64,000 nucleotides of DNA from an uncultured Candidatus Saccharibacteria bacterium (GCA_964492195.1 CAZBJL010000004.1:3621-67620); one strand, 5' to 3'. Shown: positions 1 through 39,223, numbered from the stretch's first letter. A program made the numbers and translations. The notes: generated by a model not told the origin, from the letters alone.

Positions 1-1062
1 TGTTCCACAGTCGGCACATACGGTGAGTGGCGAAAGACCTCGGCGGCTTGCAAAGATGACGAGTTGCTCGCTTTTTTCCCGGCTTCGAAGGATGAGGTTG
101 TATAGGTCTGTTGAAATCGGTTCGAACTTTTTTGCGGTTTTAATTTTCCGCATATCAATGATTCTCTGTTCGGCACTTGTTTGTATGCGAAGGGTTGGAG
201 GAGAAATTTCTCCCAATTCGTCATTTCGATATCGTGAAACGGTTTCTGTTCGGAGCAGTGTGTCGCCGTACACGAGTCGCGCATTAATTTCTTTACTGAA
301 CATTTCTGCAAAGATGCGAATGTCTGTAAATGGGCGAGAAATACTTTTATAACTTTTTGAATTTTCACGTTCAAGAATAATTGTGCCGATGTCTGTGCGC
401 GGCACAGAAAGAAATTGTCCTGTTGCGATGATGACGATTGGATGCGATTCGTTTGCGAGGTTTGTCCATCTGTCAATCAATTCTTTTTTCTTCATTCGTC
501 CGTGGAAAATGTACGAGTATTCACTGATACCTTTTTCGAGGAGCATTTCAGCCCGTTTGATGTCGCTCATCGTAGGCAAACATAAAAACACCGAACGCCC
601 ACGAGCAAATTCTTCGCGAATCAAACTTCTATAATGAGAAAAGCGATCATCGTCGTCTGTTTGAAGAATTGCTCCGTGAAGTCGCTGTGCGGTGCGTTCC
701 ACAGTTTTGGTACCGCCAAGGTCTGCAGCATTTTCAAGAATAATTTTTGGTACAAGTGAAGAAAGGAGACTGCCGAGCGTTGCAACGTGGTACTCTGCCG
801 TTTTTTCAACAGCTTTCATAAAAGGTACCGAAAGCAGACTTTCCGAAACAAGCGACGTTGTTTTTTTGTATGCAAACGTAGAGTTTTTTAATTCAAGGCG
901 AATGTTTTCTGCAGGCTGGCTTGCGATAACAAGCGCATTTACGGTTTTGCCTCGTAGAGGAACTTTGACGATCGCACCAGGAGAGACATCGTGCGCAGTA
1001 AAATAACTCAAGGATTCTTTGTGTATGCCTCGGCTAATGGGGATCACCTCGACGATTTTCAT
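1..1062 (-). CDS. priA: Primosomal protein N' (PriA), N-terminal ~354 codons; the gene runs off the window start. Walker A and motif II look degenerate.
   Basis: Hand translation of the minus strand from ATG at 1062..1060 gives MKIVEVIPISRGIHKESLSYF... It continues without a stop to position 1, which is why it is missing from the ORF track. It aligns with PriA through ...HPIVIIATGQFLSVPRTDIGTIILERENSKSYK... and the Cys-rich ...LTVCADCGT. The frame was re-checked by explicit reverse-complement of 301..420 and 601..720. Confidence 0.7.
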   Translation of the reverse strand, partial: MKIVEVIPISRGIHKESLSYFTAHDVSPGAIVKVPLRGKTVNALVIASQPAENIRLELKNSTFAYKKTTSLVSESLLSVPFMKAVEKTAEYHVATLGSLLSSLVPKIILENAADLGGTKTVERTAQRLHGAILQTDDDDRFSHYRSLIREEFARGRSVFLCLPTMSDIKRAEMLLEKGISEYSYIFHGRMKKKELIDRWTNLANESHPIVIIATGQFLSVPRTDIGTIILERENSKSYKSISRPFTDIRIFAEMFSKEINARLVYGDTLLRTETVSRYRNDELGEISPPTLRIQTSAEQRIIDMRKIKTAKKFEPISTDLYNLILRSREKSEQLVIFASRRGLSPLTVCADCGT

Positions 1063-1074
1063 GCACCAATACTA

Positions 1075-2382
1075 CTAGAGAATTTTAATTTTCGCCCCTA
1101 GATTGTTGAGTCTTTTAATGATGTCTTCATAGCCGCGGTTAATACTATAGATATTTCGCAAAATAGATTTGCCTTCCGCGCCAAGCATGGCAATGAGAAT
1201 AATCGCGGCAGGACGGAGCGCAGGTGGGCATACAACTTCCGCAGCTGTAAGAGTGCTTGGACCAGTAATGTAAATACGATGCGGATCGGCGAGATGAGTT
1301 TCAACGCCAAGTTTGTCGAGTTCTTGTAAATGAATGGCTCTTTTTTCGTACACCCAGTCGTGGATGAATGTCGTACCGTGGGCTTGAGTTGCGATTGCGG
1401 CAAAGAAGGGAAGATTGTCGATATTGAGTCCTGGGTATGGCCGCGATTCAATTTTTTCTTCGAGAGCGGTGAGGGTTGAAGGGAATGTTTCTATGTCGAC
1501 GAGTTTTGTGTGACCATTTTTTGCAACATATTTTTTGAGAATATTGAATTTGAAACCCATTTTCTCGAGTTTTAAAAGTTCGATCTCTAGGAAATCAATC
1601 GGACAGCGTTCAATAATAATATTGGAGTTTGTTACAACCGCAGCAGTAATGAAAAACATAGACTCAATAGGGTCCTCGCTCAATTCATATGTAACATCTT
1701 CGTTGATGTTTTTCTTTCCGTGAATGGTAAGAGTTGTGGTGCCGATGCCTTCAATGTTTACTCCAAGTTTTTGGAGGAAAAAACAAACCTCCTGACCCAT
1801 ATAGTTCGCTGAAGCATATTTAATTATTGTCGTGCCGGGGATTCCTGCTGCCGCAATTATTGTGTTTTCGGTGACAGTGTCGCCAGATTCGTATAAAACG
1901 ATTTCATTCGGTTGCAATTCTCCCGTTTCAATTTCATACGTAGTGTCTGTTGTTTCTATCGAGACGCCAAGTTTTTCGAGCGCAAACAAATGCGGCTTTA
2001 CGGTGCGAGAGCCGAGTTTACATCCGCCAGCCTGGGGAAGACTAAATTTTTTAAGTGAATGGATAAGTGGCCCGATGAGTAGGATAACAACTCGAGTTTT
2101 TTCAGCCGTAACGGTGTCCAGTTTATCCATTGCAAATTCTGTCGGAGGAATGATCTCTAAATCATTGTCGATCCACTTTACTGAAACACCAATGCTTTCA
2201 AATACTTCGATCATTCTAAAAACCTCTTCTATTTTCGGCACCAGTTTAAGAGTGGTTTTTCCTCGGTTAAGCAAAGAAGCAGCCATAAGGCCTAGCGCTC
2301 CGTTTTTCGAAGTTTTTGTAACCACGGTGCCGTGGAGCGTCTGTTTGCCTTCAATTTCTATGTCTATTGCTTCAGCGTTCAT
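1075..2382 (-). CDS. murA: UDP-N-acetylglucosamine 1-carboxyvinyltransferase
   Basis: The 446-aa ORF (1075..2415) aligns along its full length with MurA (ISGAKNAAL-like ...TKTSKNGALGLMAASLL..., C-terminal ...INRGYEDIIKRLNNLGAKIKIL). The internal Met at 2382 aligns best with MurA N-termini. Confidence 0.9.
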   Translation of the reverse strand: MNAEAIDIEIEGKQTLHGTVVTKTSKNGALGLMAASLLNRGKTTLKLVPKIEEVFRMIEVFESIGVSVKWIDNDLEIIPPTEFAMDKLDTVTAEKTRVVILLIGPLIHSLKKFSLPQAGGCKLGSRTVKPHLFALEKLGVSIETTDTTYEIETGELQPNEIVLYESGDTVTENTIIAAAGIPGTTIIKYASANYMGQEVCFFLQKLGVNIEGIGTTTLTIHGKKNINEDVTYELSEDPIESMFFITAAVVTNSNIIIERCPIDFLEIELLKLEKMGFKFNILKKYVAKNGHTKLVDIETFPSTLTALEEKIESRPYPGLNIDNLPFFAAIATQAHGTTFIHDWVYEKRAIHLQELDKLGVETHLADPHRIYITGPSTLTAAEVVCPPALRPAAIILIAMLGAEGKSILRNIYSINRGYEDIIKRLNNLGAKIKIL

Positions 2383-2484
2383 ATGAATTTGAGTAAATAT
2401 ACCACAGACATTCAATCGTCGCGCGGCGTGTTTGAAACGAAAAATTTGATACTTGTAACAAAAGACTTTACTATAGCGATACCT

Positions 2485-3498
2485 ATGGCGTTTTTCTCAA
2501 AAAAACTTGGCATTGATCTTGGTACGACAAGTACGCTTGTGTATGTGCCAGGAAAAGGAATCGTGTTGAACGAACCGTCAGTCGTTGCCGTTTCAGAAGA
2601 GGGGAATCAAATTATGGCAATCGGTATTGAGGCGAAAGAAATGATTGGCAAAACTCCGGACAGCATCGTCGCATATCGACCGATGAAAGACGGCGTCATC
2701 GCTGATTACCGCATTACCGAAGCGATGCTTCGATACTATATAAAGAAGGCGCTTGGTAAATACAATATTGTAAAGCCAGATGTAATCATTTCTGTTCCTG
2801 CCGGTATTACTTCGACAGAACGTCGAGCGGTTGTAGAGGCAGCACTCAAAGCTGGAGCTAAAAATGCCTATGTTGTAAAGGAACCAATCCTTGCCGCGAT
2901 CGGTGCGGGCATTCCTATTCATGAAGCAATAGGGCATATGATCGTCGACATCGGTGGTGGTACGACTGACATCGCTGTTATTTCACTCGGAGGTATCGTT
3001 GCGGCCAAGTCCGTAAAGTGTGCCGGCAATAAAATCGACTATGCAATTGCCGACTATATAAAGAAGACGTTCAACCTCGCGATCGGTGACAAAACAGCCG
3101 AAGAAGTAAAAATTAAAATTGGTTCGGCGATCCCGCTTGAAGAAGAATTAGTGCTCATGATCAAAGGACGGGATTTTGTTACAGGTTTGCCACGTTCTAT
3201 TGAAGTGAAGACAAATGAAATCACAAAAGCAATCACTAAAGAACTTCGGGAGATGATTAAGGCTATCAAGGATGTCTTCCAAGAAACTCCTCCCGAACTC
3301 GCTTCGGACATTATTGATCGCGGCATCATCATGACTGGCGGTTCTTCACAGCTTCGCAACTTGCCCGAACTTGTTTTTAGACGAACGGGGGTCAAAGCTG
3401 TCCTTGCCAAAGACGCACTCTTTTGTGTGGTCAACGGCACCGGTGTTGCGCTCGAACATCTCGACGTCTACAAGAAAACTATTTTGACGAAAAAGTAG
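2485..3498 (+). CDS. mreB: Rod shape-determining protein MreB (copy 1)
   Basis: Translation from ATG 2485 reads MAFFSKKLGIDLGTTSTLVYV...EPSVVAV...DIGGGTTDIAVISLGGIV, the actin-like MreB signature. The upstream part of ORF 2332..3498 is not MreB-like. Confidence 0.9.
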   Translation: MAFFSKKLGIDLGTTSTLVYVPGKGIVLNEPSVVAVSEEGNQIMAIGIEAKEMIGKTPDSIVAYRPMKDGVIADYRITEAMLRYYIKKALGKYNIVKPDVIISVPAGITSTERRAVVEAALKAGAKNAYVVKEPILAAIGAGIPIHEAIGHMIVDIGGGTTDIAVISLGGIVAAKSVKCAGNKIDYAIADYIKKTFNLAIGDKTAEEVKIKIGSAIPLEEELVLMIKGRDFVTGLPRSIEVKTNEITKAITKELREMIKAIKDVFQETPPELASDIIDRGIIMTGGSSQLRNLPELVFRRTGVKAVLAKDALFCVVNGTGVALEHLDVYKKTILTKK

Positions 3499-4000: not shown

Positions 4001-4702
4001 ATGTCGATGAATCCTCTCGTTGTAGATTTTTTAGGCGCACCGCGTCACCATGCGTATTTAGTTGTGGGGGATGCAGAGCAAGGCTATGAAGCGTTGCGAC
4101 TACTCATTCGAAAAAAGATTGTCGCAGGTGAAATCGATGCGTCGGATGTTTGGTCTCGGGCATATGCAAATGTAAGCATTGACGATGCTCGTGAAATAAA
4201 AGAAGTGCAAAATACCCGCCCGATCGGGAAGAGAAGAATTGTCGTTCTCTCTTTGTTTTCTATTCAGAACGAAGCGCAAAATTCTTTACTGAAGCTTTTT
4301 GAAGAACCGTCGTCGGACACCGTGTTTTTTATCTGTGCAGGGAATACGAGTATTTTCCTGCCGACGGTCTTGTCTCGTTTTTATATTGTTGAGTCGAACC
4401 TTGAAAGCAGTGGAAGCGAAGCGGGTCTGCTCACAAAATTTTTTGCAGGGTCAGTAAGCGAACGTGTGGCTCTTCTTGAACCAATTATCAAGGAAAAAGA
4501 TAAAGCAGAAGCTGAACGGTTTCTGGATTCCATTGAAGCAACTTTGTATAAGAATAAAAAAGCAATTGACTCAAACTCTCGCGTATTTGAAGATATTTTT
4601 TCAGCGCGACGATTTCTTCGAGGGCGTTCTCCGTCAGTTAAAATGATTCTCGAACATCTCTGTGGTATTGTTCCCTCAATTCAAGTAACTAAAAAAATAT
4701 GA
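4001..4702 (+). CDS. holB: DNA polymerase III delta-prime-like clamp-loader subunit
   Basis: AAA+-like N-terminus without an intact P-loop. Contains LLKLFEEP (sensor-1/LLKTLEEPP-like) and TVLSRF (SRC-like) motifs. 233 aa. Confidence 0.6.
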   Translation: MSMNPLVVDFLGAPRHHAYLVVGDAEQGYEALRLLIRKKIVAGEIDASDVWSRAYANVSIDDAREIKEVQNTRPIGKRRIVVLSLFSIQNEAQNSLLKLFEEPSSDTVFFICAGNTSIFLPTVLSRFYIVESNLESSGSEAGLLTKFFAGSVSERVALLEPIIKEKDKAEAERFLDSIEATLYKNKKAIDSNSRVFEDIFSARRFLRGRSPSVKMILEHLCGIVPSIQVTKKI

Positions 4703-8209: not shown

Positions 8210-9271
8210 ATGAAAAAATTCGCTCATAAACTCTACACGATGTTCTCGAATGATATCGGGATTGACCTTGGTACTGCGAATACGCTCGTCTATGTTCGAG
8301 GAAGAGGGGTTGTGATAAATGAACCATCTGTTGTCGCGGTAAATCAAAAAACTGGTCGCGTGGTGGCAATTGGCAAAGAAGCAAAACAAATGCTTGGCCG
8401 TACACCACCGCATATTACAGCAGTGCGTCCTGTTGTTGATGGTGTCATTTCCGACTTCGAAGTAACGGAGGAAATGATTATTTATTTTATTAATTCCGCA
8501 CAACGAGAATCCAAAAAGTTTTTAGGACCGAAAGTTGTGGTGGGAGTTCCATCCGGAATCACGAACGTTGAAATCCGTGCAGTGAGAGATGCAATCAGAA
8601 ATGCCGGTGCTCGCGAAGTGTACGTTGTTGAAGAACCGGTTGCAGCTGCAATCGGTATGAAGCTTGCTGTGATGGAACCAGTCGGAAGCATGGTTGTGGA
8701 CATTGGTGGTGGCACCACAGACATTGCCGTTATTTCACTTGGTGGTATTGTCCGCTCCAAAAACGTCCGCATTGCTGGCGACAAATTCAACAGCGACATC
8801 ATGTCGTATATCCGCAGCGAATTTAAAATTATTGTTGGAGAAAAAACTGCCGAGAATGTAAAAATCGCAATTGGTTCTGCGATCCCGATGGGCCAGTCTA
8901 TGGAAGCAGTCATAAAAGGTCGTGACCTTGTCACAGGTTTACCCAAAGAGGTTATTGTTACCGACGCAGATATTCGGGAAGCGATGGCGCAGTCTGTGTA
9001 TATTTTGGTGGAATCTGTGCGAGAAGTTTTGGAAACTACTCCGCCGGAAATTCTTTCTGACGTCATGGGGCGCGGGTTGCACCTCGCGGGTGGCGGGGCA
9101 TTGTTGCGCGGCATGGGCCAGCTTCTCCACGATGTAGTAAAAATCCCTATTCATATTGCTGAAGATCCATTGACTTGTGTGGCTCGTGGTACAGGTATCA
9201 TTCTCGAAGACCTCCAGTATTTCAAAGATATTCTAATCGTAAATGAAGATGACTTACCTCCAAAAAAGTAG
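8210..9271 (+). CDS. mreB: Rod shape-determining protein MreB (copy 2), first gene of an mreBCD-mrdA cluster
   Basis: DIGIDLGTANTLVYV...EPSVVAV...DIGGGTTDIAVISLGGIV; 353 aa. Confidence 0.9.
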   Translation: MKKFAHKLYTMFSNDIGIDLGTANTLVYVRGRGVVINEPSVVAVNQKTGRVVAIGKEAKQMLGRTPPHITAVRPVVDGVISDFEVTEEMIIYFINSAQRESKKFLGPKVVVGVPSGITNVEIRAVRDAIRNAGAREVYVVEEPVAAAIGMKLAVMEPVGSMVVDIGGGTTDIAVISLGGIVRSKNVRIAGDKFNSDIMSYIRSEFKIIVGEKTAENVKIAIGSAIPMGQSMEAVIKGRDLVTGLPKEVIVTDADIREAMAQSVYILVESVREVLETTPPEILSDVMGRGLHLAGGGALLRGMGQLLHDVVKIPIHIAEDPLTCVARGTGIILEDLQYFKDILIVNEDDLPPKK

Positions 9272-18917: not shown

Positions 18918-18986
18918 AAACGTGAGCCCCTTGAAGATTTGTAAATGAGTGAATTTCGTTGTAAGTTACGTGGGATAGTTTGTAAT

Positions 18987-19058
18987 GGCCCTATCGTCTA
19001 ATGGTTAGGACGGAAGCTTCTCAAGCTTCAAATCCGGGTTCGATTCCCGGTAGGGTCA
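18987..19058 (+). tRNA. tRNA-Glu (anticodon CUC)
   Basis: Cloverleaf by hand: acceptor GGCCCTA/TAGGGTC, D-arm GTCT..GGAC, anticodon stem GAAGC/GCTTC with loop TTCTCAA (anticodon CTC), T-arm CCGGG-TTCGATT-CCCGG, discriminator A. No encoded CCA. Confidence 0.85.
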
Positions 19059-19065
19059 TAAATAA

Positions 19066-19517: not shown

Positions 19518-22271
19518 TTATACAAACCAACCTATGATTGAATAGAAAAACTCACGGATTGATTCACCGACAAATGAGAGAAACGAAGAAATGTCATTCG
19601 TAAGAGTACTCATTACAACTGCAAGATTTGATGATCGTCCATCCGGTAATGCAGACAATTCAACTTCGCACAGACCTGTAAACACTGTATGGATGCATGC
19701 TTGGCCGGGAAGAGTAAATGTTTTTCTGTATGTTGCTGTTGCACCTTCGGCATCGGTAACTTTTATTCCAACAGTATGTGTGCCTCCCGTTGTGAAGAAA
19801 TTACTTACCCATGCTTGATCTTGGAGACTTGAAACAGCGAGTTGGTATGTCGAGACACCGTCTGTTGTATATGTGGAAGGGTCACCATACACTCCGTCTC
19901 CGTTGAAGTCGTATTCGATCGTGATCGTTGTTCCGTCAGGGTCATATGAACCGTACGAAATAAAGAGAACGTTATTGACGCGGTCGAGTTGATGGACGGT
20001 AAACGAGGCAACAGGAGAAGAGTTGATTGAAGAATCAGAAAATGCGGGAGCCCCTGCATCTTCTGGTTGAACGATCCAGAATCCAAGAGAGGATTCACTG
20101 TCACCTGATGGGTGATAAATCACGCCCTCAGGAAATGTGATCCTGACTTGTGGGGTGAGGAAGGTAACAGGACTTTCAGAAACAAGGGTGCCTTGGACGT
20201 CCATTTGTGTGCCGTCTGGGGTAAAGCGCCAGATTTTTCTACCAGCCGACGTCATGCCGGTAAGAATGTAGTCGTCATTCCATGCTGACTTGTCGGTGAC
20301 GCGGAGGCGGCTGTTTAAATGAGAGTCTTGAGAAGCGAGGCTGTGTTTGTCTTCAAATCCAGCAACAGTGTCGAATTCATCCAACGCATAACTTAAATCC
20401 TGCTTTTCTTGCGTCGTGGTTTCACTTCCAGTCCACAACTGCAGATATTCTGCCCCTGCAAGTGCCATATGGAATACGGTTTCTGCGTATGTTCCTGCTG
20501 GTGGAGCGAGATTCACGTCGCGTTCGATGTGACTTGAGCCGGCAAAGAGGGGTGCAAGAGGTGCGTCAGGTTTTGAAAGGGCAGAAACTTTTGCCCAGTT
20601 CACTTCCTGTTTAATTTTGTTGAAATAGGTTTGATTGTAGAGATGAATCCCGTCGATTGGCACGGTGCCACCACTGAACACTTCCATGGTGTAGAGTGTG
20701 CCTCTATTTTGGTGGGTACCAAAAATTGAGCCGTCGCTGTTGTAACCGCCAGAAATGTGGGTCGTTACCGCAGTATCAAGTGGCGCATAAAACGTATCGT
20801 AATTGTAATAGTAGTCGTTAAAGTTTGTAATATCGACGTTGGGGAAATAAGAAAGGAGAGGTTCGGCCATTGCCTTATTCGTGTAACTCCTAAACCAATC
20901 CGCCAAAAGCAAACCAACATATGTCTGACAATTCACCGCTGCACACGCCGTCGGGTTACGAATAAGTGTGTCGAGAGTACCCATTTTTTGTTGCATTGGG
21001 CCGTACGCTAATTCAGTTGATCTAAAATTCGTATTCGCTTGGCTGTATTTTGGATTTGAAAGGATTAAATCAAATTTTGTTTGGTCGATTCCGCTCACGT
21101 CATTCATGAACTCATTGTCCATGGTAAGGAAATCAATCTTACCGCCTATTGCTGCGTATTCTCTGAAAAAGTTATCCCATCGGACTCGAATCGTTGAAAG
21201 CCATGTATCCATCCATGGGCATCGGTAGGGTTTTGTTACCCCGTACTGGTCAACGTATGTTGGTGTGCCACCGTTTGTGTCTGTACAGTTGTCTGCATCA
21301 CTAAAAAATCCGGTCTCGCTACCTGTCATGCCTCCAAATGACCAAGAAAACATCGCACGTGCACCTGGTTCAAATCGATCGAGGTATGCTTTTGCAAGTG
21401 CAGGGTTTGCAGAAGTTGGTTCACCGGCGCTCAAAATCCACGGAGAAATAATGTTGTGATAATCTCTTTGGTATACAGGTTCTCCTCCCGCAACGTAAAT
21501 ATGCCGAAAGGCGTACAGTGTTTTTCTTGGAACAGAAGAGCCGTTTTCCTGCGAACCATCTATACATTCTGGATCAACAGGGTAGTCAGTAAGTCCATCA
21601 CTATCGTTATCAAGGCCGTCTTGGCATTCTGCTGATGTTGTTGAGTTTGTTGTAGTTCTTGATCGCGTTGGGCCTCCACCTCCGCCGCTTGGTCTGTTTG
21701 TGATAATGCTTCCAATACCTCCAACCCCTCCTGCTGAAGGGTCGCACGGTGCGCCCGTTGTTCTACTATAGAGAGAACCTGGTACACAGCCCGGAGGTAA
21801 GATTCCCGTACTGCCTGTTGAAGCGAACACAGTGGTGGAAATCTGTGAATTAACTCGTGATCGCGTTGTTGGACCAAAAAAACCAGCAACAGGGGTAATG
21901 CGCTGTGACCTTTGATATGCAGCAAGTGCGGCTTGAGTAACGGCACCAAAGTGGCCATATTTAGAAATTGGCCGTAAAAAGCCTTTTGCAATGAGAAATT
22001 TTTGGAGTGCGGTCACATCAGCACCATTGCTTCCAACATTCAAATTTCTTGTAAATCGAAAACTACTCAAGTTTCCACTACTTCCACCACCTTGTGCGGC
22101 GATCTGGCTCTGGAGTTCGGCAATTCGAACGAGGAGGGAATTCAAGAGTGCCTGCAGTTGTTCAGTTGTTTGTGAATGAGTAGCTGAAGGAGAAAAAAGG
22201 AGGGTGGATATGATAATGAAAGACACAAGTGGCCCGGCGAGTTTCTTTATTCTGGACGTATATTTTTCCAC
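19518..22271 (-). CDS. Large secreted multi-domain protein: signal peptide, peptidoglycan-binding domain, Gly/Thr-rich linker, Cys-flanked DxDxDG module, ~550-aa uncharacterised central domain, C-terminal PKD-like domain
   Basis: GTG start at 22271. N-terminal signal (LVSFIIISTLLFSPSATHS). PG_binding_1-like segment (GSNGADVTALQKFLIAKGF...GHFGAVTQAALAAYQ...GFFGPTT). CQDGLDNDSDGLTDYPVDPEC. PKD-like YDPDGTTITIEYDFNGDG...THTVGIKVTDAEGATATY. By eye, GC is higher than in neighbouring genes. Confidence 0.8.
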   Translation of the reverse strand: MEKYTSRIKKLAGPLVSFIIISTLLFSPSATHSQTTEQLQALLNSLLVRIAELQSQIAAQGGGSSGNLSSFRFTRNLNVGSNGADVTALQKFLIAKGFLRPISKYGHFGAVTQAALAAYQRSQRITPVAGFFGPTTRSRVNSQISTTVFASTGSTGILPPGCVPGSLYSRTTGAPCDPSAGGVGGIGSIITNRPSGGGGGPTRSRTTTNSTTSAECQDGLDNDSDGLTDYPVDPECIDGSQENGSSVPRKTLYAFRHIYVAGGEPVYQRDYHNIISPWILSAGEPTSANPALAKAYLDRFEPGARAMFSWSFGGMTGSETGFFSDADNCTDTNGGTPTYVDQYGVTKPYRCPWMDTWLSTIRVRWDNFFREYAAIGGKIDFLTMDNEFMNDVSGIDQTKFDLILSNPKYSQANTNFRSTELAYGPMQQKMGTLDTLIRNPTACAAVNCQTYVGLLLADWFRSYTNKAMAEPLLSYFPNVDITNFNDYYYNYDTFYAPLDTAVTTHISGGYNSDGSIFGTHQNRGTLYTMEVFSGGTVPIDGIHLYNQTYFNKIKQEVNWAKVSALSKPDAPLAPLFAGSSHIERDVNLAPPAGTYAETVFHMALAGAEYLQLWTGSETTTQEKQDLSYALDEFDTVAGFEDKHSLASQDSHLNSRLRVTDKSAWNDDYILTGMTSAGRKIWRFTPDGTQMDVQGTLVSESPVTFLTPQVRITFPEGVIYHPSGDSESSLGFWIVQPEDAGAPAFSDSSINSSPVASFTVHQLDRVNNVLFISYGSYDPDGTTITIEYDFNGDGVYGDPSTYTTDGVSTYQLAVSSLQDQAWVSNFFTTGGTHTVGIKVTDAEGATATYRKTFTLPGQACIHTVFTGLCEVELSALPDGRSSNLAVVMSTLTNDISSFLSFVGESIREFFYSIIGWFV

Positions 22272-25087: not shown

Positions 25088-26515
25088 TTAGAGATCAGCA
25101 AATTCTTTTTCTGCACCGCCGTACTCGCTCTTTGTCAGGCTCTGAAAGGTAACTTTTTTGTCATTAAAGAAGAGTTCAACTTTTCCCGTTTCGCCGTTTC
25201 GGTGTTTTTCAATAAGAATTTCAGCGATGTTGTTTTTGTCGGCTTGTTCTTTGTACTTGTCTTCGCGATGAATAAACATGACAACGTCGGCGTCCTGTTC
25301 GATCGAACCGGAGTCGCGAAGGTCGGAGAGACGAGGTCGGCCTCCGCGTTGTTCGACGGCACGGGAAAGCTGGGAAAGGGCAAGAACAGGCACGTCGAGT
25401 TCGCGGGCAAGATTTTTGAGCGAACGGGAAATTTCCGTGACTTGCTGAACGACGTTGTCATTGCCGCGCGAGTTTGTGGGTACCATGAGCTGGAGGTAGT
25501 CGACAATGAGGAGCTTCAAGCCCTTTTCGCTTTTGAGACGGCGGGCAACAGAGCGCATTTTGAGAATGTTATTTCCTGGCTGGTCGTCAATGTAGATTGG
25601 TGCTTTGGAAAGTTCATCAAGTGAACGGCGAATTGATTCGAATTCGTCTTCACGACTCAACTTTCCTGTTCGGAGTTTCCACGCGTCGACGTCGGATTGT
25701 GACGCAAGCATTCTGTCGACAAGCTGCTGTGAGCTCATTTCCAAAGAAAAAATACCAACAGGTGTATTGTGTTTAATTGCAGACATGCGAGCAATGTCGA
25801 GTGCGAGCGATGTTTTTCCCATTGAAGGTCGAGCAGCCAAAATAATGAGATCGGATTTTTGAAAGCCCGAAAGTTTATTGTCGAGTTCGATAAAACCCGT
25901 TGAAACTCCACGGAGGCCTTCTTTGGAATTGTGAAGTTTGTCGAGACGCTCCCAGGCTTCGGTTAATTCATCTTTGAGTTCGATGAATTTGTGAACGGAA
26001 GAGAAGTTTGTAACATCAAACACGTGTTTTTCTGCGCGATCGAGAACTTCTTCGAGCTCGGTGGATTCTTCGTAGCCTAGATTTGAAATATGTTCGGCGG
26101 CTTCGATGAGGCGACGCATCATAAACTTTCGTTGAACAATTTCAGCGTAGTATTTTGCATTCGTTGCAGTTGGAACACCTTGCACGAGTTCGGCAAGAAA
26201 TGTTGAACCGCCAATCTGGTCGAGTTGCCCTCGCTCTTTAAGGTGAGCTGACACTGAAAGCAAATCAATCGGATTGCTTCGTTTGAAAAGATCAAACATT
26301 GCACCGATCACAATTCGATGTTTTTCAGAATAAAAAGATTCTTTGGTGATGATGTCGGTAATTTCAAACATCGAGTCTGGACGCTGCATGACAGACCCAA
26401 GGAGCGCTGCTTCTGCATCGAGATTTTGTGGAGGAATTCGAAGACTGTTTCTTGTATTCGCCATGCTCACCATACTAGCAGAGCGGGCAGGGTAATTTGA
26501 GTTCGTTTTTGGCAT
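25088..26515 (-). CDS. dnaB: Replicative DNA helicase DnaB
   Basis: Walker A ARPSMGKTSLAL, DnaB N-terminal domain, RecA-like C-terminal domain; 475 aa, no intein. Confidence 0.95.
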   Translation of the reverse strand: MPKTNSNYPARSASMVSMANTRNSLRIPPQNLDAEAALLGSVMQRPDSMFEITDIITKESFYSEKHRIVIGAMFDLFKRSNPIDLLSVSAHLKERGQLDQIGGSTFLAELVQGVPTATNAKYYAEIVQRKFMMRRLIEAAEHISNLGYEESTELEEVLDRAEKHVFDVTNFSSVHKFIELKDELTEAWERLDKLHNSKEGLRGVSTGFIELDNKLSGFQKSDLIILAARPSMGKTSLALDIARMSAIKHNTPVGIFSLEMSSQQLVDRMLASQSDVDAWKLRTGKLSREDEFESIRRSLDELSKAPIYIDDQPGNNILKMRSVARRLKSEKGLKLLIVDYLQLMVPTNSRGNDNVVQQVTEISRSLKNLARELDVPVLALSQLSRAVEQRGGRPRLSDLRDSGSIEQDADVVMFIHREDKYKEQADKNNIAEILIEKHRNGETGKVELFFNDKKVTFQSLTKSEYGGAEKEFADL

Positions 26516-31987: not shown

Positions 31988-32980
31988 TTAATTATTTTGT
32001 TCAGAAAATATTTCTTTCGCTCTCTTCCAAAATTCTGGATGATTATTTTCCTTCATGTAATACCACCATTCAGCGCCCCATAAATATTGTTTTTCAAAAC
32101 CTGATTTTTTAGCAAATTCAATCGCATGATTAAATTTATCAATGTTCATCTGACTTAACGCAGTATCCATCGATACATCTACAATTGGCTGCAAAAGCCA
32201 TGGTTCGGCTGAGAGTTCGATCAATAGTACCTCTTTTTTGCCATTCACGAGCTCAATTATGTTTCTTTTGATTCTAAAAAACGCTGGGGTAATCGGATAG
32301 CGAATTTGGCCGAGTTTGTGATTCCAGATATAGAGATACATGCTTGTGCCAAATAAATCTCCAGAATTGTACGCTTTGTACCACAAACCAAGTTCGCCGC
32401 TGTCTGTGACAAGAATTTTGTGAGTTGAATCAAGTGAACGAACAAGAGCAACTTCGGTATTTAAAAATTCTCGATCAAAGAAATCTCCGCAATTATTTTT
32501 GGCAAAGAATGAAAGGAACGGTTCGTTTTCGATCTGCCATTCAGAAATTGCCGGTGAATTTTTGTATCGAGTAACAACTGCGGTTATGTACGTGAGAACT
32601 TCTGCACGCTTTTCTTCTTTTGAAAGGTTTTTTGCCCAGTCTGGTTCGTGACATTCTGGCCAGCCAGGCAAACGTCGTCCAACCGCAAGAATTACCCTCG
32701 CGTCGTGCTTTTCTGCCTCTTTGATCTGATAATCAAGCTCTGACCAATTGAAAGAATCTTTTTTGGGTTCGGTGAGCGGCCAATGAGCTGAAAGGCGAAA
32801 TTTCGTGACCCCAAGGTCGTTTAAAAGTGAATCGTAGACCTTTTTCCAGTCCAACTTGAGCTCTTGGGAATGGAATACGCTAAATGAGACGCCATAGGTA
32901 ACTGTGTCTGGAATTTTTCTGATTGAAAGGAGATAGAGACATCCGGCAATAATAATGACGACAATTAAAAGTTTTTTCAT
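31988..32980 (-). CDS. Lipoprotein glycoside hydrolase, clan GH-A TIM-barrel (GH5/GH113-like)
   Basis: Lipobox (IIIAGC). Catalytic acid-type NEP motif (WQIENEPF). Aromatic-rich (beta/alpha)8-like pattern. The family assignment is tentative. Confidence 0.5.
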   Translation of the reverse strand: MKKLLIVVIIIAGCLYLLSIRKIPDTVTYGVSFSVFHSQELKLDWKKVYDSLLNDLGVTKFRLSAHWPLTEPKKDSFNWSELDYQIKEAEKHDARVILAVGRRLPGWPECHEPDWAKNLSKEEKRAEVLTYITAVVTRYKNSPAISEWQIENEPFLSFFAKNNCGDFFDREFLNTEVALVRSLDSTHKILVTDSGELGLWYKAYNSGDLFGTSMYLYIWNHKLGQIRYPITPAFFRIKRNIIELVNGKKEVLLIELSAEPWLLQPIVDVSMDTALSQMNIDKFNHAIEFAKKSGFEKQYLWGAEWWYYMKENNHPEFWKRAKEIFSEQNN

Positions 32981-33876
32981 AAAAAGAGGACAAAGAATCC
33001 AATAACTATTAAACCTGTTGCAAGGGATTTATGTAGAAACTCATGACGGTGAACTGTTTCCTCAAAATATTCTGGCATGAGGCGACTAAAGAATATTGCA
33101 AAAATAAGGAGGAACATATACTGCGTTGCGCTCAAGGCGTTTACGAGCGTGGCGTTCCCAGACTTAAGCGCAATTAAAATACATAAGAAACCTAGACCTG
33201 CCAACACCTTGTTCCCTATTATCAAAACAGTTTTGTTTGCTTTGCTTTTATGTTGATTTGGTTTCCTTAAATCTTTTTTAATTTCTTTATAAAAGGTAGG
33301 GACCAGTAAAAAAGAAAGTGCGACTACTACGTTTGCCATTCGGGACCAGAAAAAGCCGTTGATGAACGTTTCATTTTGAAGGAGGAGCTTCATGATGACT
33401 GTTGAAAAACCGAAAAAGATTCCGGACCCAGAAAGGAAGAATAATGATTGCTTTGTAAATTTGAAGTGAGAGATGAGAAGCATTCCAATGACAAGAATTG
33501 TGAAACCAATGAGAAAATTATTTGGTAGATTTTCATTTAAAATAAATGCGCTGCTGATGAATGCAGAAATTGCGGCTACCCCACCGACAACTGGTACGAC
33601 CTCCGAAGCGTTTGATTTGATGAGGGATTTGTAGAGCAAGAAAATCGAAATGGCATAACTTATTGCTGCAATAAATGAAATACCAATGGTTGCTGGAGTT
33701 GGAATTGTGACACCAAAAGGCAATGCGCCAATAGCAAATATAGACAGAACTCCTACATAAAAGGTGTAGACAACGGGCTTTGAAACAACACCTTCATTCA
33801 CTATGAATCGATCAACAAGCACGGCAACTGCGTAGAGAAACTGTCCGATGATTACAAATAAAAGCCAGGTAGTCAT
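32977..33876 (-). CDS. EamA/DMT-family transporter (10 TM)
   Basis: 299 aa with two EamA-like halves of about 5 TM each. 4-nt overlap with the downstream gene. Confidence 0.75.
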   Translation of the reverse strand: MTTWLLFVIIGQFLYAVAVLVDRFIVNEGVVSKPVVYTFYVGVLSIFAIGALPFGVTIPTPATIGISFIAAISYAISIFLLYKSLIKSNASEVVPVVGGVAAISAFISSAFILNENLPNNFLIGFTILVIGMLLISHFKFTKQSLFFLSGSGIFFGFSTVIMKLLLQNETFINGFFWSRMANVVVALSFLLVPTFYKEIKKDLRKPNQHKSKANKTVLIIGNKVLAGLGFLCILIALKSGNATLVNALSATQYMFLLIFAIFFSRLMPEYFEETVHRHEFLHKSLATGLIVIGFFVLFL

Positions 33877-33879
33877 GAT

Positions 33880-35046
33880 TTAATTTTCTATTTCAATAAC
33901 ATTTGTTTCACAGATATTTTTATACACATACGCTGATGGGCGGATATGTCTCTGTTGAGTTACAAAATCAACTTCAATAAGACCGAAACGTTTTTCAAAC
34001 CCAAATGTCCATTCGTAATTATCCATGATTGACCAATGAAGATATCCACGGACATCAACACCATCTTGAATTGCGCGATGGATTTGGGCTAAATGGTCGA
34101 TGATGAACTTCCCTCTCTGTGCGTCAGTTGCATCGGCTAAACCATTTTCCATTATATACACAGGTTTTTGATATCGAGTGAGTTCTTTTAACACCCCGTA
34201 TATTCCTTCGGGATAAATACTCCAGCCCATATCAGTTTTGGGCAAATCGAGTGTTCCGCCAAGAAGCATGTAGAAATAATAATTTAAACCAATAAAGTCT
34301 AAATGTTTTTGAGTTTTGTTAAGAAAACGATGATTTATCCAGTGATATAAAAACTTTGCAGCAATAAAATTTATTGGATTCAATCCTCTGCTTTCAAAAA
34401 GAACATTGTCTTTCGCGACTCCAATGCTTATATCTGGTCGGATTTTTTTTACTGCCGCACTGGCAGCATTGTGAGCTTTGATTAAGTTATTACAGACCTT
34501 TAGGTACGCAATTGTATCTTTTCGAAATGGTGGCCAATATTTGCGAATGTAGCCGTTATGACTGTAGCCAGAGGGTTCGTTTATGAGTACGAGAAACTGC
34601 ACGTCAGGTAAGATTTCTTTAGTAACAAATTCAGCGTATTTTTTGAATCGCTCAATTGATTTTTTATTTTCAAAACCGCCGTCTTTTGAAAACCATAACG
34701 GCAGCGTAAAGTGCCAGAGCGTAATGAAAGGTTCCAATCCTCGAACTTTGAGTGCGTTGATTACATTTCGGTAATGAGCAACTTCTTTGTGGTCAAACTT
34801 CCCTTCTTCGGGTTCGATTCGAGCCCATTCAATAGATATTCGATGGCTGTTGTGACCGAGCTTCTGGGCATTGTTAAAATCTTCTTCGTATCGGTTGTAC
34901 TGATCGCATGCAGCACCACACACAGGGACTTTTCCCTGCTTCGCTGCTTCAGCCCAATCGCAATTTTCGATGCCGCCTTCAACTTGATATGAAGCTGATG
35001 CCGCGCCCCATAAAAATTTTTCTGGAAATCGGAGAATGTGTTTCAT
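33880..35046 (-). CDS. Glycoside hydrolase family 1 beta-glucosidase
   Basis: N-terminal FLWGAASASYQVEG; acid/base LINEPS; nucleophile YIMENG; 388 aa. Confidence 0.85.
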   Translation of the reverse strand: MKHILRFPEKFLWGAASASYQVEGGIENCDWAEAAKQGKVPVCGAACDQYNRYEEDFNNAQKLGHNSHRISIEWARIEPEEGKFDHKEVAHYRNVINALKVRGLEPFITLWHFTLPLWFSKDGGFENKKSIERFKKYAEFVTKEILPDVQFLVLINEPSGYSHNGYIRKYWPPFRKDTIAYLKVCNNLIKAHNAASAAVKKIRPDISIGVAKDNVLFESRGLNPINFIAAKFLYHWINHRFLNKTQKHLDFIGLNYYFYMLLGGTLDLPKTDMGWSIYPEGIYGVLKELTRYQKPVYIMENGLADATDAQRGKFIIDHLAQIHRAIQDGVDVRGYLHWSIMDNYEWTFGFEKRFGLIEVDFVTQQRHIRPSAYVYKNICETNVIEIEN

Positions 35047-35172
35047 TGGGATTATTCAAGAAGACCTTCCCACCATTCAAACGTGAAATGCATAAAAAGG
35101 TAGAGCGGGCCGTAAATCGGTAGTAACAAGAAAAACAGGATTGTGTTGATGACTTTCATACGTAATTGTATA

Positions 35173-35379
35173 TCAGAAATTCTTACTAATAAAATTTCTA
35201 ATGAATTGCACGAGTGCTTGCAGTGGCTCTTTCAAATGATCATTCCAGAGTGTGAGAAAGAAATTTTGAACTTCTGGTTTTCTAAACCAGGCTAATACGT
35301 CAATATGAAGCCAAAACTTTAAAAGCAAAATGGCAGCAATGACAAGAAGTATTGTTGATATGAATCCTCGATTTTTCAT
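35173..35379 (-). CDS. Small membrane protein (68 aa), hypothetical
   Basis: ATG 35379 lies 2 nt after the M23 peptidase stop. MKNRGFISTILLVIAAILLL has a single TM. The upstream part of track ORF 35173..35565 overlaps the peptidase and is not used. Confidence 0.35.
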   Translation of the reverse strand: MKNRGFISTILLVIAAILLLKFWLHIDVLAWFRKPEVQNFFLTLWNDHLKEPLQALVQFIRNFISKNF

Positions 35380-35380
35380 T

Positions 35381-36688
35381 TTAAAAATAGAGCAATGGGT
35401 TGAGGTATGCGCGAATGTCAGCAACGGGAATGATTGCGTTTTTGCAATTAATACTGTTTTCGTATTTAACAATCTTAACACCTTGCGATGCATATACGCC
35501 AAAGTGAAGATGTGCGCCAGCTGGCCCTGCTGGAACAACGTAGCCTGTGTAGCCGCTGTATCCAACGATGTCGCCAGTTGCTACGCGTTGACCCGGAGTA
35601 ACTTTGATCAAACTTAAATGAGCGTAGAGGCTTGAAAGCCCGTTGTCGTGTCGCACAAGGACCCATCTGCCGTATGAAAAACATCCTGGTACAACGTCTG
35701 TATCGCCAACACCTTCCACGGTGCCGGTAAGTACCGCCATGACTTTTGTACCTGTTGTGGCTCTAAAATCAACACCGTTGTGACCTTTGCCGTTATAGGC
35801 ATTTGTTGTTTTGGAAAATTCAGTATCACCGAAATACTGCGTAATATAAATATTTTCAAGCGGCCAGGTAAGAATTCCCTCACCCGCGCTTGGGTAGCTG
35901 CTTGGATTGATAATAAATTTGAGTTGGCTTTCGTATTGATTCAATTCCTGTCGAAAGGCTTCACCAAGACGCTTTTTTTCTTCGAGTTGAAGTTTATATG
36001 TTGCTTCTTTGCTTTGAGTAACAGAAAGGAGTTTGGTTTTTTCGGATTTGTTTATATCAGCAATTTTTTTCTGATCTTCAAGCGTTCCCTTAAGTCCGAG
36101 CAAGCTTACTTTTTTTGTTTCAGTTGCTTCTTTCTTTTGAGCGAGCTGCTTTTTTAATTCCCGTACCGCTTCAATGTTGCCCTTAAGTGCGGTTTGAAAT
36201 CTACTTAATGATTCAATTTCATTCCATACATCGGCAGCAGTGTCGTGTGCAAGAAGAATCTCAACCATAGAAAAATTTTCTGCTTGGTTCGAAGCGCGGA
36301 TCGCCCCTCCAAGTGCGGACTGACTCGTTTGAATTTTCTTCTCACCGTCAATAATTTCTGATTCAAGTTCTGAAATGCTTAGGCTTGTCGCGCTCACCTG
36401 GTTTTGGGTAATTTCGAGCTCTTTTGCAAGTTTGCTTCGCTGAGTGTCGAGTACGCTGATGGTGCTTTTGAGTGTCTGACCTTCTTTTGCTGTTTCCTGG
36501 ATTTGCCCATCAAGCTGTTTGATTTCTTTATTCAACTGCTCGATTTTGGCATTTCGATCAGCAATATTTTTCTTAATTGTTTCTATTGCAGCATCGTCAG
36601 CTCCTTGTGCATTTTTAAACTGGGGACCACCAAGTACGAGGAGGAGTAAAAGAAAGAGAAGACTGATTTTAAACAGTGCTCTATTCAT
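35381..36688 (-). CDS. M23-family peptidoglycan DD-metalloendopeptidase with N-terminal coiled-coil (EnvC-like)
   Basis: Signal peptide, about 230-aa coiled-coil, C-terminal LytM domain (HNGVDF...YAHLS...GYTGY...HLHFGVY). Confidence 0.85.
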   Translation of the reverse strand: MNRALFKISLLFLLLLLVLGGPQFKNAQGADDAAIETIKKNIADRNAKIEQLNKEIKQLDGQIQETAKEGQTLKSTISVLDTQRSKLAKELEITQNQVSATSLSISELESEIIDGEKKIQTSQSALGGAIRASNQAENFSMVEILLAHDTAADVWNEIESLSRFQTALKGNIEAVRELKKQLAQKKEATETKKVSLLGLKGTLEDQKKIADINKSEKTKLLSVTQSKEATYKLQLEEKKRLGEAFRQELNQYESQLKFIINPSSYPSAGEGILTWPLENIYITQYFGDTEFSKTTNAYNGKGHNGVDFRATTGTKVMAVLTGTVEGVGDTDVVPGCFSYGRWVLVRHDNGLSSLYAHLSLIKVTPGQRVATGDIVGYSGYTGYVVPAGPAGAHLHFGVYASQGVKIVKYENSINCKNAIIPVADIRAYLNPLLYF

Positions 36689-38075
36689 TATTTTTTAATT
36701 TGCTTTCGGCCAAGGCAAGACGTGTGAGACTTTCTTTTCTTCCAAGAAGTGCAATGAGAGTGAACGGATCAGGAGATTTATTTTTGCCAGTAAGCGCAAA
36801 ACGGATTGGCCAGAGAACTGCGCCGCGGCCGTGTTCGGTGGCGTAGTTCCACACAAGTCCTTTTACACTTTCGCTCTCTGTTAACGCTGCATCCGGAGCA
36901 TTTTCAATAATCGCAATGATCTCTCGCAAAAATTCTTGAGTTCTTTCGGAATCTTTTTCGTCTCTCCAAAGTAAGTCTTTGATATCGTACTCTGGGCTTT
37001 CAAATAAATAATCAAAATCTCCCGCGTCAAACAAAGCGACGATGTCTGAATATACATCAATTCTGTCAATTAAAGCCGGCACAAGTTTTACCAAAAGTTC
37101 ATCAGAAAGTTTCCATTTCTTTTCTTTGTATACCGCTGAACTTTCGATAAATGGTCGGATTTCAAGAGCGATTTCCTGATGCGTTTTCCTTTTCAAATAT
37201 TCTCTGTTGACCCAGCGAAGTTTTTCTTCGTTATATACCGCGCCTGCTTTTTGGACTTGGGCAATATTAAATCGCTTTATGAGTTCCGCTGGTGTAAAAA
37301 ATTCCTCCTCTGTTCCAGGATTCCATCCAAGCATCGCCATATAATTAATAATTGCTTCAGGGAAGTATCCTTGGTCTTTGAAATATTTAAGAGAAATTTT
37401 TTCGCCGTGTTTGCGTTTTGAAAGTTTCGTTCGATCGCTTGAAAGAATAAGCGGTAAATGCGCATATATTGGCCGTGGAGCGCCGATTGCTTCTTGGATG
37501 AGGATTTGTCGCGGAGTGTTTGAAATATGATCTTCGCCGCGAATAATGTGGGTTACGCCTGCTTCGAAATCATCAATAACAACAGCCAAATGATATACCG
37601 GCTCGGTAAGGCTTCGTGCAATGACAAAATCACCGAGTTCCTTTGTGTCAAAAGAAATTTCACCGCGAATAAGATCGGTAAAGGTAATATTTTTATTTGG
37701 GTTTTTAAAACGGATTACTTCTGGCCGTTTTGTTGGGTCGCCGCCGGTGTCTTCTTTTGAAACATACGCAAAACCGTCTTTGATTATTTTTTCTAGATAC
37801 AGACGGTACACCTCCCCTCTTTCTGACTGTCGAAGGATTTTTTTATTATCCCAGTGCAAACCAAGCCACGTGAGGTTCGCAATAAGTTCAGTTTCGTATT
37901 CTTTTGTGGACCGTTCTTTGTCCGTATCTTCAACCCGAAAAATAAATTCTCCGTCATGCTGTTTTGCGTACAGAAAATTATAAATTGCAGTACGAACATT
38001 TCCCATTTGCAAAAGACCTGTCGGACTTGGTGGAAATCGAGTAATTATTTTTTTGTAATTTTCGGAGTTTTTCAT
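36681..38075 (-). CDS. gltX: Glutamyl-tRNA synthetase
   Basis: TRFPPSPTGLLQMGNVRTAIYNFLYAKQHDGEFIFRVEDTD and KLSKR; 464 aa. Confidence 0.9.
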   Translation of the reverse strand: MKNSENYKKIITRFPPSPTGLLQMGNVRTAIYNFLYAKQHDGEFIFRVEDTDKERSTKEYETELIANLTWLGLHWDNKKILRQSERGEVYRLYLEKIIKDGFAYVSKEDTGGDPTKRPEVIRFKNPNKNITFTDLIRGEISFDTKELGDFVIARSLTEPVYHLAVVIDDFEAGVTHIIRGEDHISNTPRQILIQEAIGAPRPIYAHLPLILSSDRTKLSKRKHGEKISLKYFKDQGYFPEAIINYMAMLGWNPGTEEEFFTPAELIKRFNIAQVQKAGAVYNEEKLRWVNREYLKRKTHQEIALEIRPFIESSAVYKEKKWKLSDELLVKLVPALIDRIDVYSDIVALFDAGDFDYLFESPEYDIKDLLWRDEKDSERTQEFLREIIAIIENAPDAALTESESVKGLVWNYATEHGRGAVLWPIRFALTGKNKSPDPFTLIALLGRKESLTRLALAESKLKNNE

Positions 38076-38078
38076 ATA

Positions 38079-39206
38079 TTAGATTTCGTGTTTCATAGCA
38101 ATTGAAAGGATTTCTTTCGCGATCGCTCGTGCTGCGTCTGGTTTAAAGAAATTTTTTGCTGCAGTTCCCATATTCGCACGTTCGTTTGTATTATCCATAA
38201 TGCGGTCAATTTCGGATGTGAGGATGTGAGACGTCACGTTTGACTCCTCAAGCACCACGCAGGCTTTATTTCTCGCGTACGCATACGCATTTTTTCTTTG
38301 ATGGTCTCCGTGGGATTCGGTGATCGGAATAAGTATCGACGGAAGGCCCCATGACGCGATTTCAAAAATTGCCGAGCCTGCACGCGAAATAACGAGGCTT
38401 GATGCCCCTGCCGCCATTCGGAGACTTAATTCGTTGAGGTAATCAAACGCTTTGTATCGTGAAGCATGTCTGTTGTTGAAAAGAATTGCATCAGCTCGTG
38501 AAGTAATGTCTTCAAAATTATTTTTGCCGGTTTGATGAATAATCTGATATTTCTCTACGAGCTGTGGAAGTGTATCTACAATAATGTTGTTTATCATCTG
38601 GGCACCAAGTGAGCCGCCGAGAACTAAAAGAGTTGGAACATCACGATCAAGTTTCAAAAATTCATGCGCACCTTCAGTGAGAGGCTCGGTAATTTCTTTT
38701 CGAACAGGGTTGCCGGTAACCTGAACTTTTTCTTGCGGAAAGAATTTCCCCGCTTCATCAAAAGAAACTGCAATTCGTTGTGCAAACTTCCCCGCGAATT
38801 TATTTACTCGGCCAGGTACAGTGTCGGACTCATGGATAACGACGGGAATTCTAAAAAAACGTGCAGCAATGAGTACGGGAAAGCTCGCATATCCTCCTTT
38901 GCTGAACACAACATCAGGATAAATTGAAAATACTGTCCAAAGCGCTGTTAAAACTCCCCACCCTGTTTTAAAGAAATCAAAAAAGTTTTTGGAAGAACGG
39001 TAAAGCCGTTTTTTCCCCGCAGAATTTTTTTTGTAAAGGATGTTATTGTCAAACAAAAGCGCCGCATTGTACGGTGTGTCGGAAATATAATAAAGCTGTG
39101 GTGCGAGAAGTCGATATTCTTTTGAAAGTTTTTGGATTTCCTCGGCAACAGAGAGTATTGGATAAAAATGCCCACCCGAACCTCCACCAGTAAAAAGAAT
39201 CTTCAT
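38079..39206 (-). CDS. murG: Undecaprenyldiphospho-muramoylpentapeptide beta-N-acetylglucosaminyltransferase MurG
   Basis: MKILFTGGGSGGHFYP...; GT28 N- and C-terminal domains. Confidence 0.9.
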   Translation of the reverse strand: MKILFTGGGSGGHFYPILSVAEEIQKLSKEYRLLAPQLYYISDTPYNAALLFDNNILYKKNSAGKKRLYRSSKNFFDFFKTGWGVLTALWTVFSIYPDVVFSKGGYASFPVLIAARFFRIPVVIHESDTVPGRVNKFAGKFAQRIAVSFDEAGKFFPQEKVQVTGNPVRKEITEPLTEGAHEFLKLDRDVPTLLVLGGSLGAQMINNIIVDTLPQLVEKYQIIHQTGKNNFEDITSRADAILFNNRHASRYKAFDYLNELSLRMAAGASSLVISRAGSAIFEIASWGLPSILIPITESHGDHQRKNAYAYARNKACVVLEESNVTSHILTSEIDRIMDNTNERANMGTAAKNFFKPDAARAIAKEILSIAMKHEI

Positions 39207-39223
39207 GTCTTTGATTATTTAAA

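Follow-up and report, generated by a model that had tools for sequence, protein, structure and literature searches.

The priA-like gene of the window

The stretch analysed here, called the window throughout, comprises 64,000 nucleotides from an uncultured Candidatus Saccharibacteria bacterium (GCA_964492195.1, CAZBJL010000004.1:3621-67620), and its first 1062 positions carry the beginning of a gene related to priA, which encodes the replication restart protein PriA. The gene lies on the minus strand (1..1062), has its ATG at 1060-1062, 12 nt past the murA stop codon on the same strand, and runs as an uninterrupted open reading frame (ORF) of 354 codons until it leaves the window at '...CADCGT' in the reverse-complement translation. 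The original prediction, made from the sequence alone, had taken this fragment for a PriA homologue with a degenerate Walker A site and a degenerate motif II, probably dead as a helicase and retained as a scaffold. It had put the cut at about codon 354, as the ORF bears out, and the two strings that it quoted are both present in the translation (ENAADLGGTKTVERTAQ, residues 110-126, and IGTIILERENSKSYK, residues 225-239).

Several searches place the fragment in the PriA family. It matches the Pfam model PF17764 (PriA_3primeBD) over residues 17-105 (E 7.1e-6, 26.2 bits, cut-off 22.7), the NCBIfam priA models (E 1e-25 to 1e-10) and, in a phmmer search against solved structures, the PriA proteins of Klebsiella pneumoniae and Escherichia coli (E 2.5e-9, window residues 140-353). 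A homologue search with the fragment returned 32 relatives (E 1e-27 to 1e-98, 34-49% identity), all of them from metagenome-assembled genomes (MAGs) of the Patescibacteria type, and the profile of this family gives the fragment 525 bits. Judged by these scores, its homology to PriA is far beyond chance.

The full-length relatives are about 612-660 aa long. With TIGR00595, the priA equivalog model, the window fragment scores 76.4 bits, a value that covers the N-terminal 354 codons only, while four full-length relatives score 261, 230.5, 202 and 165 bits against a cut-off of 230.35. Because the scores straddle this cut-off, the annotation of the family is mixed: NCBI labels its members partly as 'hypothetical protein', and JGI as 'primosomal protein N''.

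For the comparison of motifs, E. coli PriA was aligned with the window protein and full-length relatives (MAFFT), and the result was compared with the phmmer alignment to structure 4NL4. Since the window holds the N-terminal 354 residues, motifs V and VI, most of the Cys-rich region and the C-terminal domain were read from relatives.

Retained domains and predicted fold

The window protein begins with the 3'-end DNA-binding domain (3'BD; residues 1-105, 748..1062, minus strand), recognised by PF17764. Its Tyr20 corresponds to Tyr18 of E. coli PriA, and the equivalent of Lys61 is kept as well. Both positions are well preserved in the family, with Tyr18 kept in 170 of 171 sequences and Lys or Arg at position 61 in 171 of 174; full-length relatives match PF17764 with E values down to 1e-9.

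A short variable linker follows (residues 106-129, 676..747, minus strand), and it occupies the place of the E. coli winged-helix (WH) domain. E. coli residues ~105-198 are gapped opposite this linker, whose length is 16-25 residues across the family, and the WH model PF21213 matches E. coli PriA and no family member examined.

At the other end of the fragment, the start of helicase lobe 2 is visible (4..54, minus strand), with the motif IV region 'FASRRGLSP' and the first CxxC pair (C349 and C352). In the family, the first pair is present at C436 in 293 of 300 sequences and at C439 in 292 of 300. Each of the eight zinc-binding cysteines (four CxxC pairs for two zinc ions, of which the first pair only falls within the window) is kept in ~92-98% of relatives. 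Full-length members also keep the 'IQT' and 'YPPF' landmarks and the C-terminal 'VDP'. Two relatives, P0014 and P0007, have lost cysteines of the two middle CxxC pairs and probably bind one of the two zinc ions only.

Positions that dock PriB on E. coli PriA, namely D438, T482 and H483 (PMC10175261), follow a different pattern. D438 is kept as Asp in 285 of 292 sequences, T482 is Trp in 286 of 290, and H483 reads Asn, Arg or Lys. The conserved 'CxxCGSW' surface on the Cys-rich region could thus be a partner-docking site.

On E. coli PriA, Pfam recognises the 3'BD, WH, DEAD, ResIII, Helicase_C, the PriA zinc ribbon and PriA_C; on four family members it finds the 3'BD alone, plus a weak PriA_C match. 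For the AlphaFold model of the full-length relative P0008 (mean predicted local distance difference test score, pLDDT, 85.6; predicted template modelling score, pTM, 0.84), the first nine places among the PDB matches all go to PriA structures (E 1.6e-38 to 1.7e-25, TMq 0.63-0.73). Among the two best is 6DCR, a winged-helix deletion of E. coli PriA (TMq 0.73). The next matches are Mfd and other superfamily 2 (SF2) helicases, at E 1e-8 or worse and TM 0.2-0.4. The model obtained for the window fragment (pLDDT 79.5) contains the 3'BD and lobe 1.

Loss of the ATPase motifs

The original prediction had located the Walker A motif at 'DLGGTKT' (residues 114-120, nt 703-723). This placement does not hold. 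Two independent alignments put the string in the variable linker, ~20 residues upstream of the true site; it is unconserved, has a pLDDT of 57-66, and its resemblance to Walker A is due to chance. The former Walker A (motif I), supported by the alignments and the model, spans residues 131-144 (AILQTDDDDRFSHY, 631..672, minus strand), with its core 'LQTDDDDRF' at residues 133-141. Here, both phmmer and MAFFT set E. coli L-L-A-G-V-T-G-S-G-K230-T-E-V-Y opposite A-I-L-Q134-T-D-(gap)-D-D-D-R140-F-S-H-Y144 of the window protein. The site contains zero glycines, one residue is deleted, Lys230 has become Arg140 and Thr231 has become Phe141, and an acidic run has taken over, three acidic residues occupying the position of the phosphate-binding loop. 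The true Walker A site is more degenerate than had been supposed.

The same state is found throughout the family. For a motif census, 415 relatives with a length of 300 aa or more were aligned to E. coli PriA. In this census the K230 position is Arg in 408 of the 409 occupied cells and never Lys, positions 227-229 are mostly Asp or Glu, and the A223 position is Gln in 394 sequences, which gives the consensus Q-x-[DE]3-R. G-K at the Walker A position was found in none of the 415 sequences. The original prediction had allowed that an intact GxxxxGK[ST] or D-E-x-H might lie elsewhere in the full-length protein; none that would be functional was seen in these relatives. A regular-expression scan of all family proteins did find GxxxxGKS in P0042, in the helix after the site, where it is a chance match, and DExD/H strings in three proteins. 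One of these, the DEEH of P0142, stands at motif II; the other two do not and are chance matches.

Structure prediction agrees with this picture. In the P0008 model, a two-residue turn connects strand 117-121 ('QLVLQ') to helix 124-140; in that of the window fragment, the turn 'QTD' connects strand 130-133 to helix 137-153. Since strand and helix are joined by a turn of 2-3 residues in both models, the P-loop, the Gly-rich loop which in RecA-like ATPases encloses the phosphates, is absent.

Motif II had been placed correctly. The former Walker B lies at residues 227-239 (TIILERENSKSYK, 346..384, minus strand), where the phmmer and MAFFT alignments set E. coli V-I-D320-E321-E322-H323-DSSYK against I-L-E231-R232-E233-N234-SKSYK. 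DEEH has thus become EREN as claimed: D320 is replaced by E231, the catalytic E321 by R232 and H323 by N234, and E322 is kept as E233. Across the family, position 321 is His in 137 sequences, Arg in 122, Lys in 100, Asn in 21 and Glu in 10, so that a His, Arg or Lys stands there in 359 of 413; position 322 is Glu in 403 of 413.

The remainder of the protein was said to align well with PriA. This holds in part: motif III and the aromatic-rich loop are both altered, and the Cys-rich region contributes no more than its first CxxC pair to the window. In the loop (residues 238-249, YKSISRPFTDIR, 316..351, minus strand), the alignment pairs Trp333 with Pro244, Tyr335 with Thr246 and His336 with Asp247, and Arg338 is kept as Arg249. 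In E. coli PriA, W333 and Y335 couple DNA binding to ATPase activity (PMC5175346). The family carries the same replacements, with Pro at W333 in 291 of 299 sequences (406 in the census of 415), Asp at H336 in 295 of 299 and Arg at R338 in 283 of 299. The former motif III (residues 264-275, VYGDTLLRTETV, against ILGSATPALETL in E. coli; 238..273, minus strand) reads GDTL in place of GSAT, with Ser356 replaced by Asp267; this position is Asp in 389 of 414 family sequences.

Beyond the window edge, full-length relatives have 'GTEM' instead of 'GTQM' in motif V. Motif VI (QxxGRAGR), which supplies the arginine fingers, has lost its A-G-R-A-G segment in 415 of 415 relatives. The Pfam models DEAD, ResIII and Helicase_C match E. 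coli PriA and none of the four family members.

A site rebuilt in this way might still bind a nucleotide in a non-canonical manner, through Arg140 and other basic residues or through a second, weaker site proposed for PriA, and the protein would then remain an ATPase or helicase. We consider this very unlikely. It is true that the pocket is highly conserved, with Arg at the lysine position in 98% and Glu322 kept in 97% of sequences, and that a second nucleotide site has been reported for E. coli PriA, according to a review (PMC5778457). Yet K230R by itself ends the ATPase activity of E. coli PriA, and the Deinococcus radiodurans protein, with the same Lys-to-Arg change, has no measurable ATPase. 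In addition, the P-loop glycines are all gone, three acidic residues sit at the phosphate site, the loop is cut to 2-3 residues, the arginine-finger segment of motif VI is deleted, and both W333 and Y335 are lost.

Conservation across Patescibacteria

To describe how widely the gene occurs, we used a profile search of representative clusters, two further homologue searches of 120 sequences each around P0032 (the most divergent member) and P0168 (the most canonical-looking), and a pattern, built from 7 sequences, that was scanned over one genome per GTDB species. The family profile matches 17,021 representative clusters, 8197 of them at E<=1e-30. Each of the top 150 scores more than 657 bits and has a length of ~620-700 aa; the lower part of the list of 8197 will include canonical PriAs. 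The pattern scan found the gene in at least 211 species genomes; the best 80 of these 211 all bear labels of uncultured bacteria or of MAGs of the Patescibacteria type (Parcubacteria, Paceibacterota, Minisyncoccia, Zambryski-, Taylor- and Yonath-bacteria), a few bins being evidently mislabelled.

The replaced positions are not drifting, and rank with the best-conserved columns in the alignment. Conservation reaches 0.98 for Arg at K230 and Asp at H336, 0.97 for Glu at E322 and Pro at W333, and 0.94 for Asp at S356 and Gln at A223, in a family with a mean column identity of 44-48% and many invariant residues.

These results bear on whether the gene is simply an artefact of sequencing or assembly, or a pseudogene on its way out. 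Genomes of Patescibacteria are strongly reduced, and NCBI labels many members 'hypothetical protein', as would suit a gene under loss. However, the 354 codons of the window are uninterrupted, full-length ORFs are intact in hundreds of independent assemblies, the catalytic replacements are nearly invariant at the mean identity given above, and the fold is predicted with confidence. Nor is the degeneration a sequencing error, which the original prediction had named as one way to be wrong: it is conserved across the family. We therefore find decay or artefact barely credible, and the conservation pattern already refutes it.

No transitional PriA with live motifs was found: the searches around P0032 and P0168 returned the dead form only. 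Some members nevertheless keep relics of an active enzyme. P0142 has 'DEEH' at motif II, and P0168 has 'DEEE' together with a near-canonical motif III, 'GATTPS', each in combination with a dead Walker A site (Q...R). Because such relics of motifs II and III persist in members with a dead Walker A site, the family appears to descend from an active helicase. The loss of Walker A is universal in the family and was probably early. In all, P0142, P0168, P0119 and five other relatives keep Glu at the catalytic position of motif II (for example 'DEEH', 'DEEE' and 'EEEH'), and the Walker A site is dead in all eight.

Gene neighbourhood and copy number

The window carries the gene order PBP2-mreC-mreB-proS-rseP-frr-holB-mreB2-murA-priA, and the same order is found in the contig of P0008 (L002), with def and fmt next after priA. 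The arrangement priA-def-fmt is a classical one, known for example from Bacillus. Among 81 related loci, murA lies upstream in 53, def directly downstream in 49 and fmt in 48.

In the window, murA (1075..2382, minus strand; EPSP_synthase Pfam match) is directly upstream of priA. Its product has ~435 aa and no helix-turn-helix (HTH) domain, while MurA of L002 (8405-9937, plus strand) has 510 aa with an N-terminal HTH_3/HTH_19 fusion. Divergent from murA is a second mreB paralogue (2332-3498, plus strand), 47% identical to the mreB at 8210-9271; L002 has this extra mreB between holB and murA as well. Its true start in the window is probably near 2485, and the minus-strand ORFs at 2593-2937 and 3054-3440 inside it are spurious. 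The holB gene (4001-4702) is short, with 233 aa.

The window also encodes RecR, RmuC and the replicative helicase DnaB (25088..26515, minus strand; DnaB and DnaB_C Pfam matches). By analogy with D. radiodurans, DnaB is the presumed client of PriA. Its Walker A motif is intact (ARPSMGKT), and so the P-loops of other ATPases in the source genome can be regarded as normal.

A search with the family profile found no second PriA-like sequence in the 64-kb window, and none occurs in flanks of up to 6 kb at the 81 loci. This matters for the possibility that the gene is a neofunctionalised paralogue, with restart left to a canonical PriA, or to some other restart helicase, encoded elsewhere. A rebuilt and highly conserved pocket would suit a new function, and our view of the source genome is limited to the 64-kb window. 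On the other hand, the gene holds the place of priA beside def-fmt in 49 of 81 loci, no second PriA-like ORF appears in the regions just named, and three homologue searches around divergent members gave this form only. Moreover, gene-bearing contigs of 0.68-1.0 Mb suggest genomes of ~0.7-1 Mb, with little room for paralogues. Taken together, we think it unlikely that the gene is such a paralogue.

Other features of the window

Some further genes of the window stand out by their domain composition. A 276-aa protein (59621-60451, minus strand) joins an ATP-cone, an Mrr-type restriction-endonuclease core and an AF1548-like C-terminal domain, and adjoins a gene for a PD-(D/E)XK nuclease (58763-59614, minus strand); the combination of ATP-cone and Mrr is an unusual nucleotide-sensing nuclease architecture. 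A 377-aa protein (62781-63914, minus strand) has Pfam matches to Sigma70 region 4 at its N-terminus (residues 50-104) and to HARE-HTH (257-315), in an order that is odd for a sigma or delta-like factor. Three long ORFs on the minus strand gave little or no domain information: one of 917 aa (19518-22271) with only a peptidoglycan-binding domain, one of 448 aa (53501-54847) with only a weak, sub-threshold GlxA match (E 7e-4), and one of 409 aa (61459-62688) with no Pfam match.

The only RNA gene detected in the 64 kb is tRNA-Glu(CTC) (18986-19059). GC skew is positive from position 1 to ~34 kb and near zero or negative after that, and genes are mostly on the plus strand at 4-19 kb and all on the minus strand at 32-64 kb. 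A terminus-like switch of skew and orientation may lie at ~32000-40000, although the signal is weak.

Discussion

The genetics and biochemistry of PriA offer two points of comparison. In E. coli, the priA300 allele (K230R) lacks ATPase, helicase and translocase activity, but its behaviour is near wild type and primosome assembly is supported; only the PriA-PriC route and some special substrates call for the helicase (PMC5778457). The second comes from nature. PriA of D. radiodurans has the Lys-to-Arg change and poor motifs I and II, neither hydrolyses ATP nor unwinds DNA, yet its affinity for single-stranded DNA and forks is near normal, and it complexes with its own DnaB (Lopper, Boone & Morrow 2015, PLoS One, PMC4504706).

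In the light of these systems, we consider it probable that the window gene is the PriA orthologue of Patescibacteria (Minisyncoccia/Paceibacteria, 'Parcubacteria'), a conserved pseudohelicase that acts as an ATP-independent fork-recognition adaptor and recruits DnaB. The helicase-dead scaffold proposed by the original prediction is therefore supported, and it fits both the K230R genetics and the Deinococcus pseudohelicase. Judged from sequence and models, the protein keeps what PriA uses to recognise DNA structure and to dock its partners: the 3'BD, two RecA-like lobes that serve as a scaffold, the Cys-rich region with its two zinc ions and the C-terminal domain. What appears to be lost is the WH domain, motifs I, II, III and VI and the aromatic-rich loop, that is, all elements of ATP binding, hydrolysis and coupling.

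Such a protein would use its 3'BD and lobes to bind the 3' end and the arms of an abandoned fork or D-loop, independently of ATP, and would serve as a landing pad that returns DnaB to the lagging-strand template. DnaB might be recruited through the Cys-rich region. That fork recognition and DnaB recruitment could proceed without ATP is suggested by the analogy with E. coli K230R and D. radiodurans PriA, and direct recruitment of DnaB is plausible because neither PriB nor DnaT is expected in the Deinococcus type or in the family of the window gene. The protein should be unable to unwind the lagging-strand duplex. Where a fork has such a duplex at its junction, a different helicase would have to act, or restart would fail.

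Some points weigh against this interpretation. The loss of ATPase is deduced from motif states and predicted structure, and the recruitment of DnaB by analogy with other species. What we say of motifs V and VI, most of the Cys-rich region and the C-terminal domain comes from relatives that are 38-49% identical. A second intact PriA, or a substitute helicase, may be encoded beyond the 64-kb window. Finally, the strong conservation of the rebuilt pocket suggests a specific role that goes beyond a plain scaffold.

Comparison with known PriA proteins helps to define the family. Like canonical PriA (TIGR00595; structures 4NL4 and 8FAK), its members have the 3'BD, two lobes, four CxxC pairs, the C-terminal domain, the def-fmt neighbourhood and the fold. 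They differ from canonical PriA in that their identity to it is ~19-24%, the WH domain is lacking, motifs I, II, III and VI are in a state that appears non-functional, and the Pfam DEAD and Helicase_C models give no match. The PriB-docking D438/T482/H483 of the E. coli protein read D/W/[NRK]. The direct joining of the 3'BD to the helicase core recalls E. coli 6DCR, which is however an engineered deletion with intact ATPase motifs. With E. coli K230R (there are also K230A and K230D laboratory mutants) the family shares the same Lys-to-Arg change at Walker A. There it is an engineered single change in a helicase that is otherwise intact and has PriB and DnaT as partners, whereas the state in Patescibacteria is natural, affects several motifs and is fixed.

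There is also a close likeness to the Deinococcus-Thermus pseudohelicase. The window protein has R140 and E-R-E-N, the family shows Arg for the Walker A lysine in 408 of 409 sequences, its motifs I and II are poorly matched, and by analogy a motor-less role in restart is presumably kept. The differences from D. radiodurans PriA as described are the host group (Patescibacteria), an acidic and shortened P-loop, a changed motif III and aromatic loop, a partly deleted motif VI and the missing WH domain. Given the phylogenetic distance between the lineages, the two forms presumably have independent origins.

It had been implied that a naturally dead PriA would be without precedent. This is not so: the motor-dead PriA of Deinococcus was already known (PMC4504706), and because this precedent is published, the finding of a dead PriA is less surprising. 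The review literature treats Deinococcus as the sole exception among PriA proteins, and our literature search found no paper that links Patescibacteria or the candidate phyla radiation (CPR) with loss of PriA motifs. A natural PriA pseudohelicase has thus been known since 2015, and the Patescibacteria family appears to be a second, much larger and more diverse lineage (at least 211 species genomes and hundreds of protein clusters) with a deeper loss.

A more far-reaching idea can be offered only tentatively, and we hold it to be doubtful. A major bacterial radiation might restart replication with a motor-less, one-protein adaptor whose ATP pocket has been rebuilt as a new selected site. The site would comprise Q134, the acidic positions 136-139, R140, E233 and D267 and, from the former aromatic loop, P244 and D247, all of them in columns that rank with the best conserved of the protein. 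The lobes would be locked by an internal salt-bridge 'pseudo-nucleotide' or would bind another ligand, and the zinc domain would dock DnaB or some other partner directly. The scaffold would then be the ancestral core of PriA, and the motor an accessory.

For the annotation of these genomes there is a practical consequence. Many members score below the TIGR00595 cut-off and carry the label 'hypothetical protein', and replication restart may wrongly look absent from their hosts. For structural work on the hand-over of DnaB without PriB or DnaT, the family may offer a naturally minimal PriA, with no WH domain and apparently no ATPase. In general, the finding lends weight to the idea that PriA is indispensable for recognising forks and recruiting the helicase, and not for unwinding.

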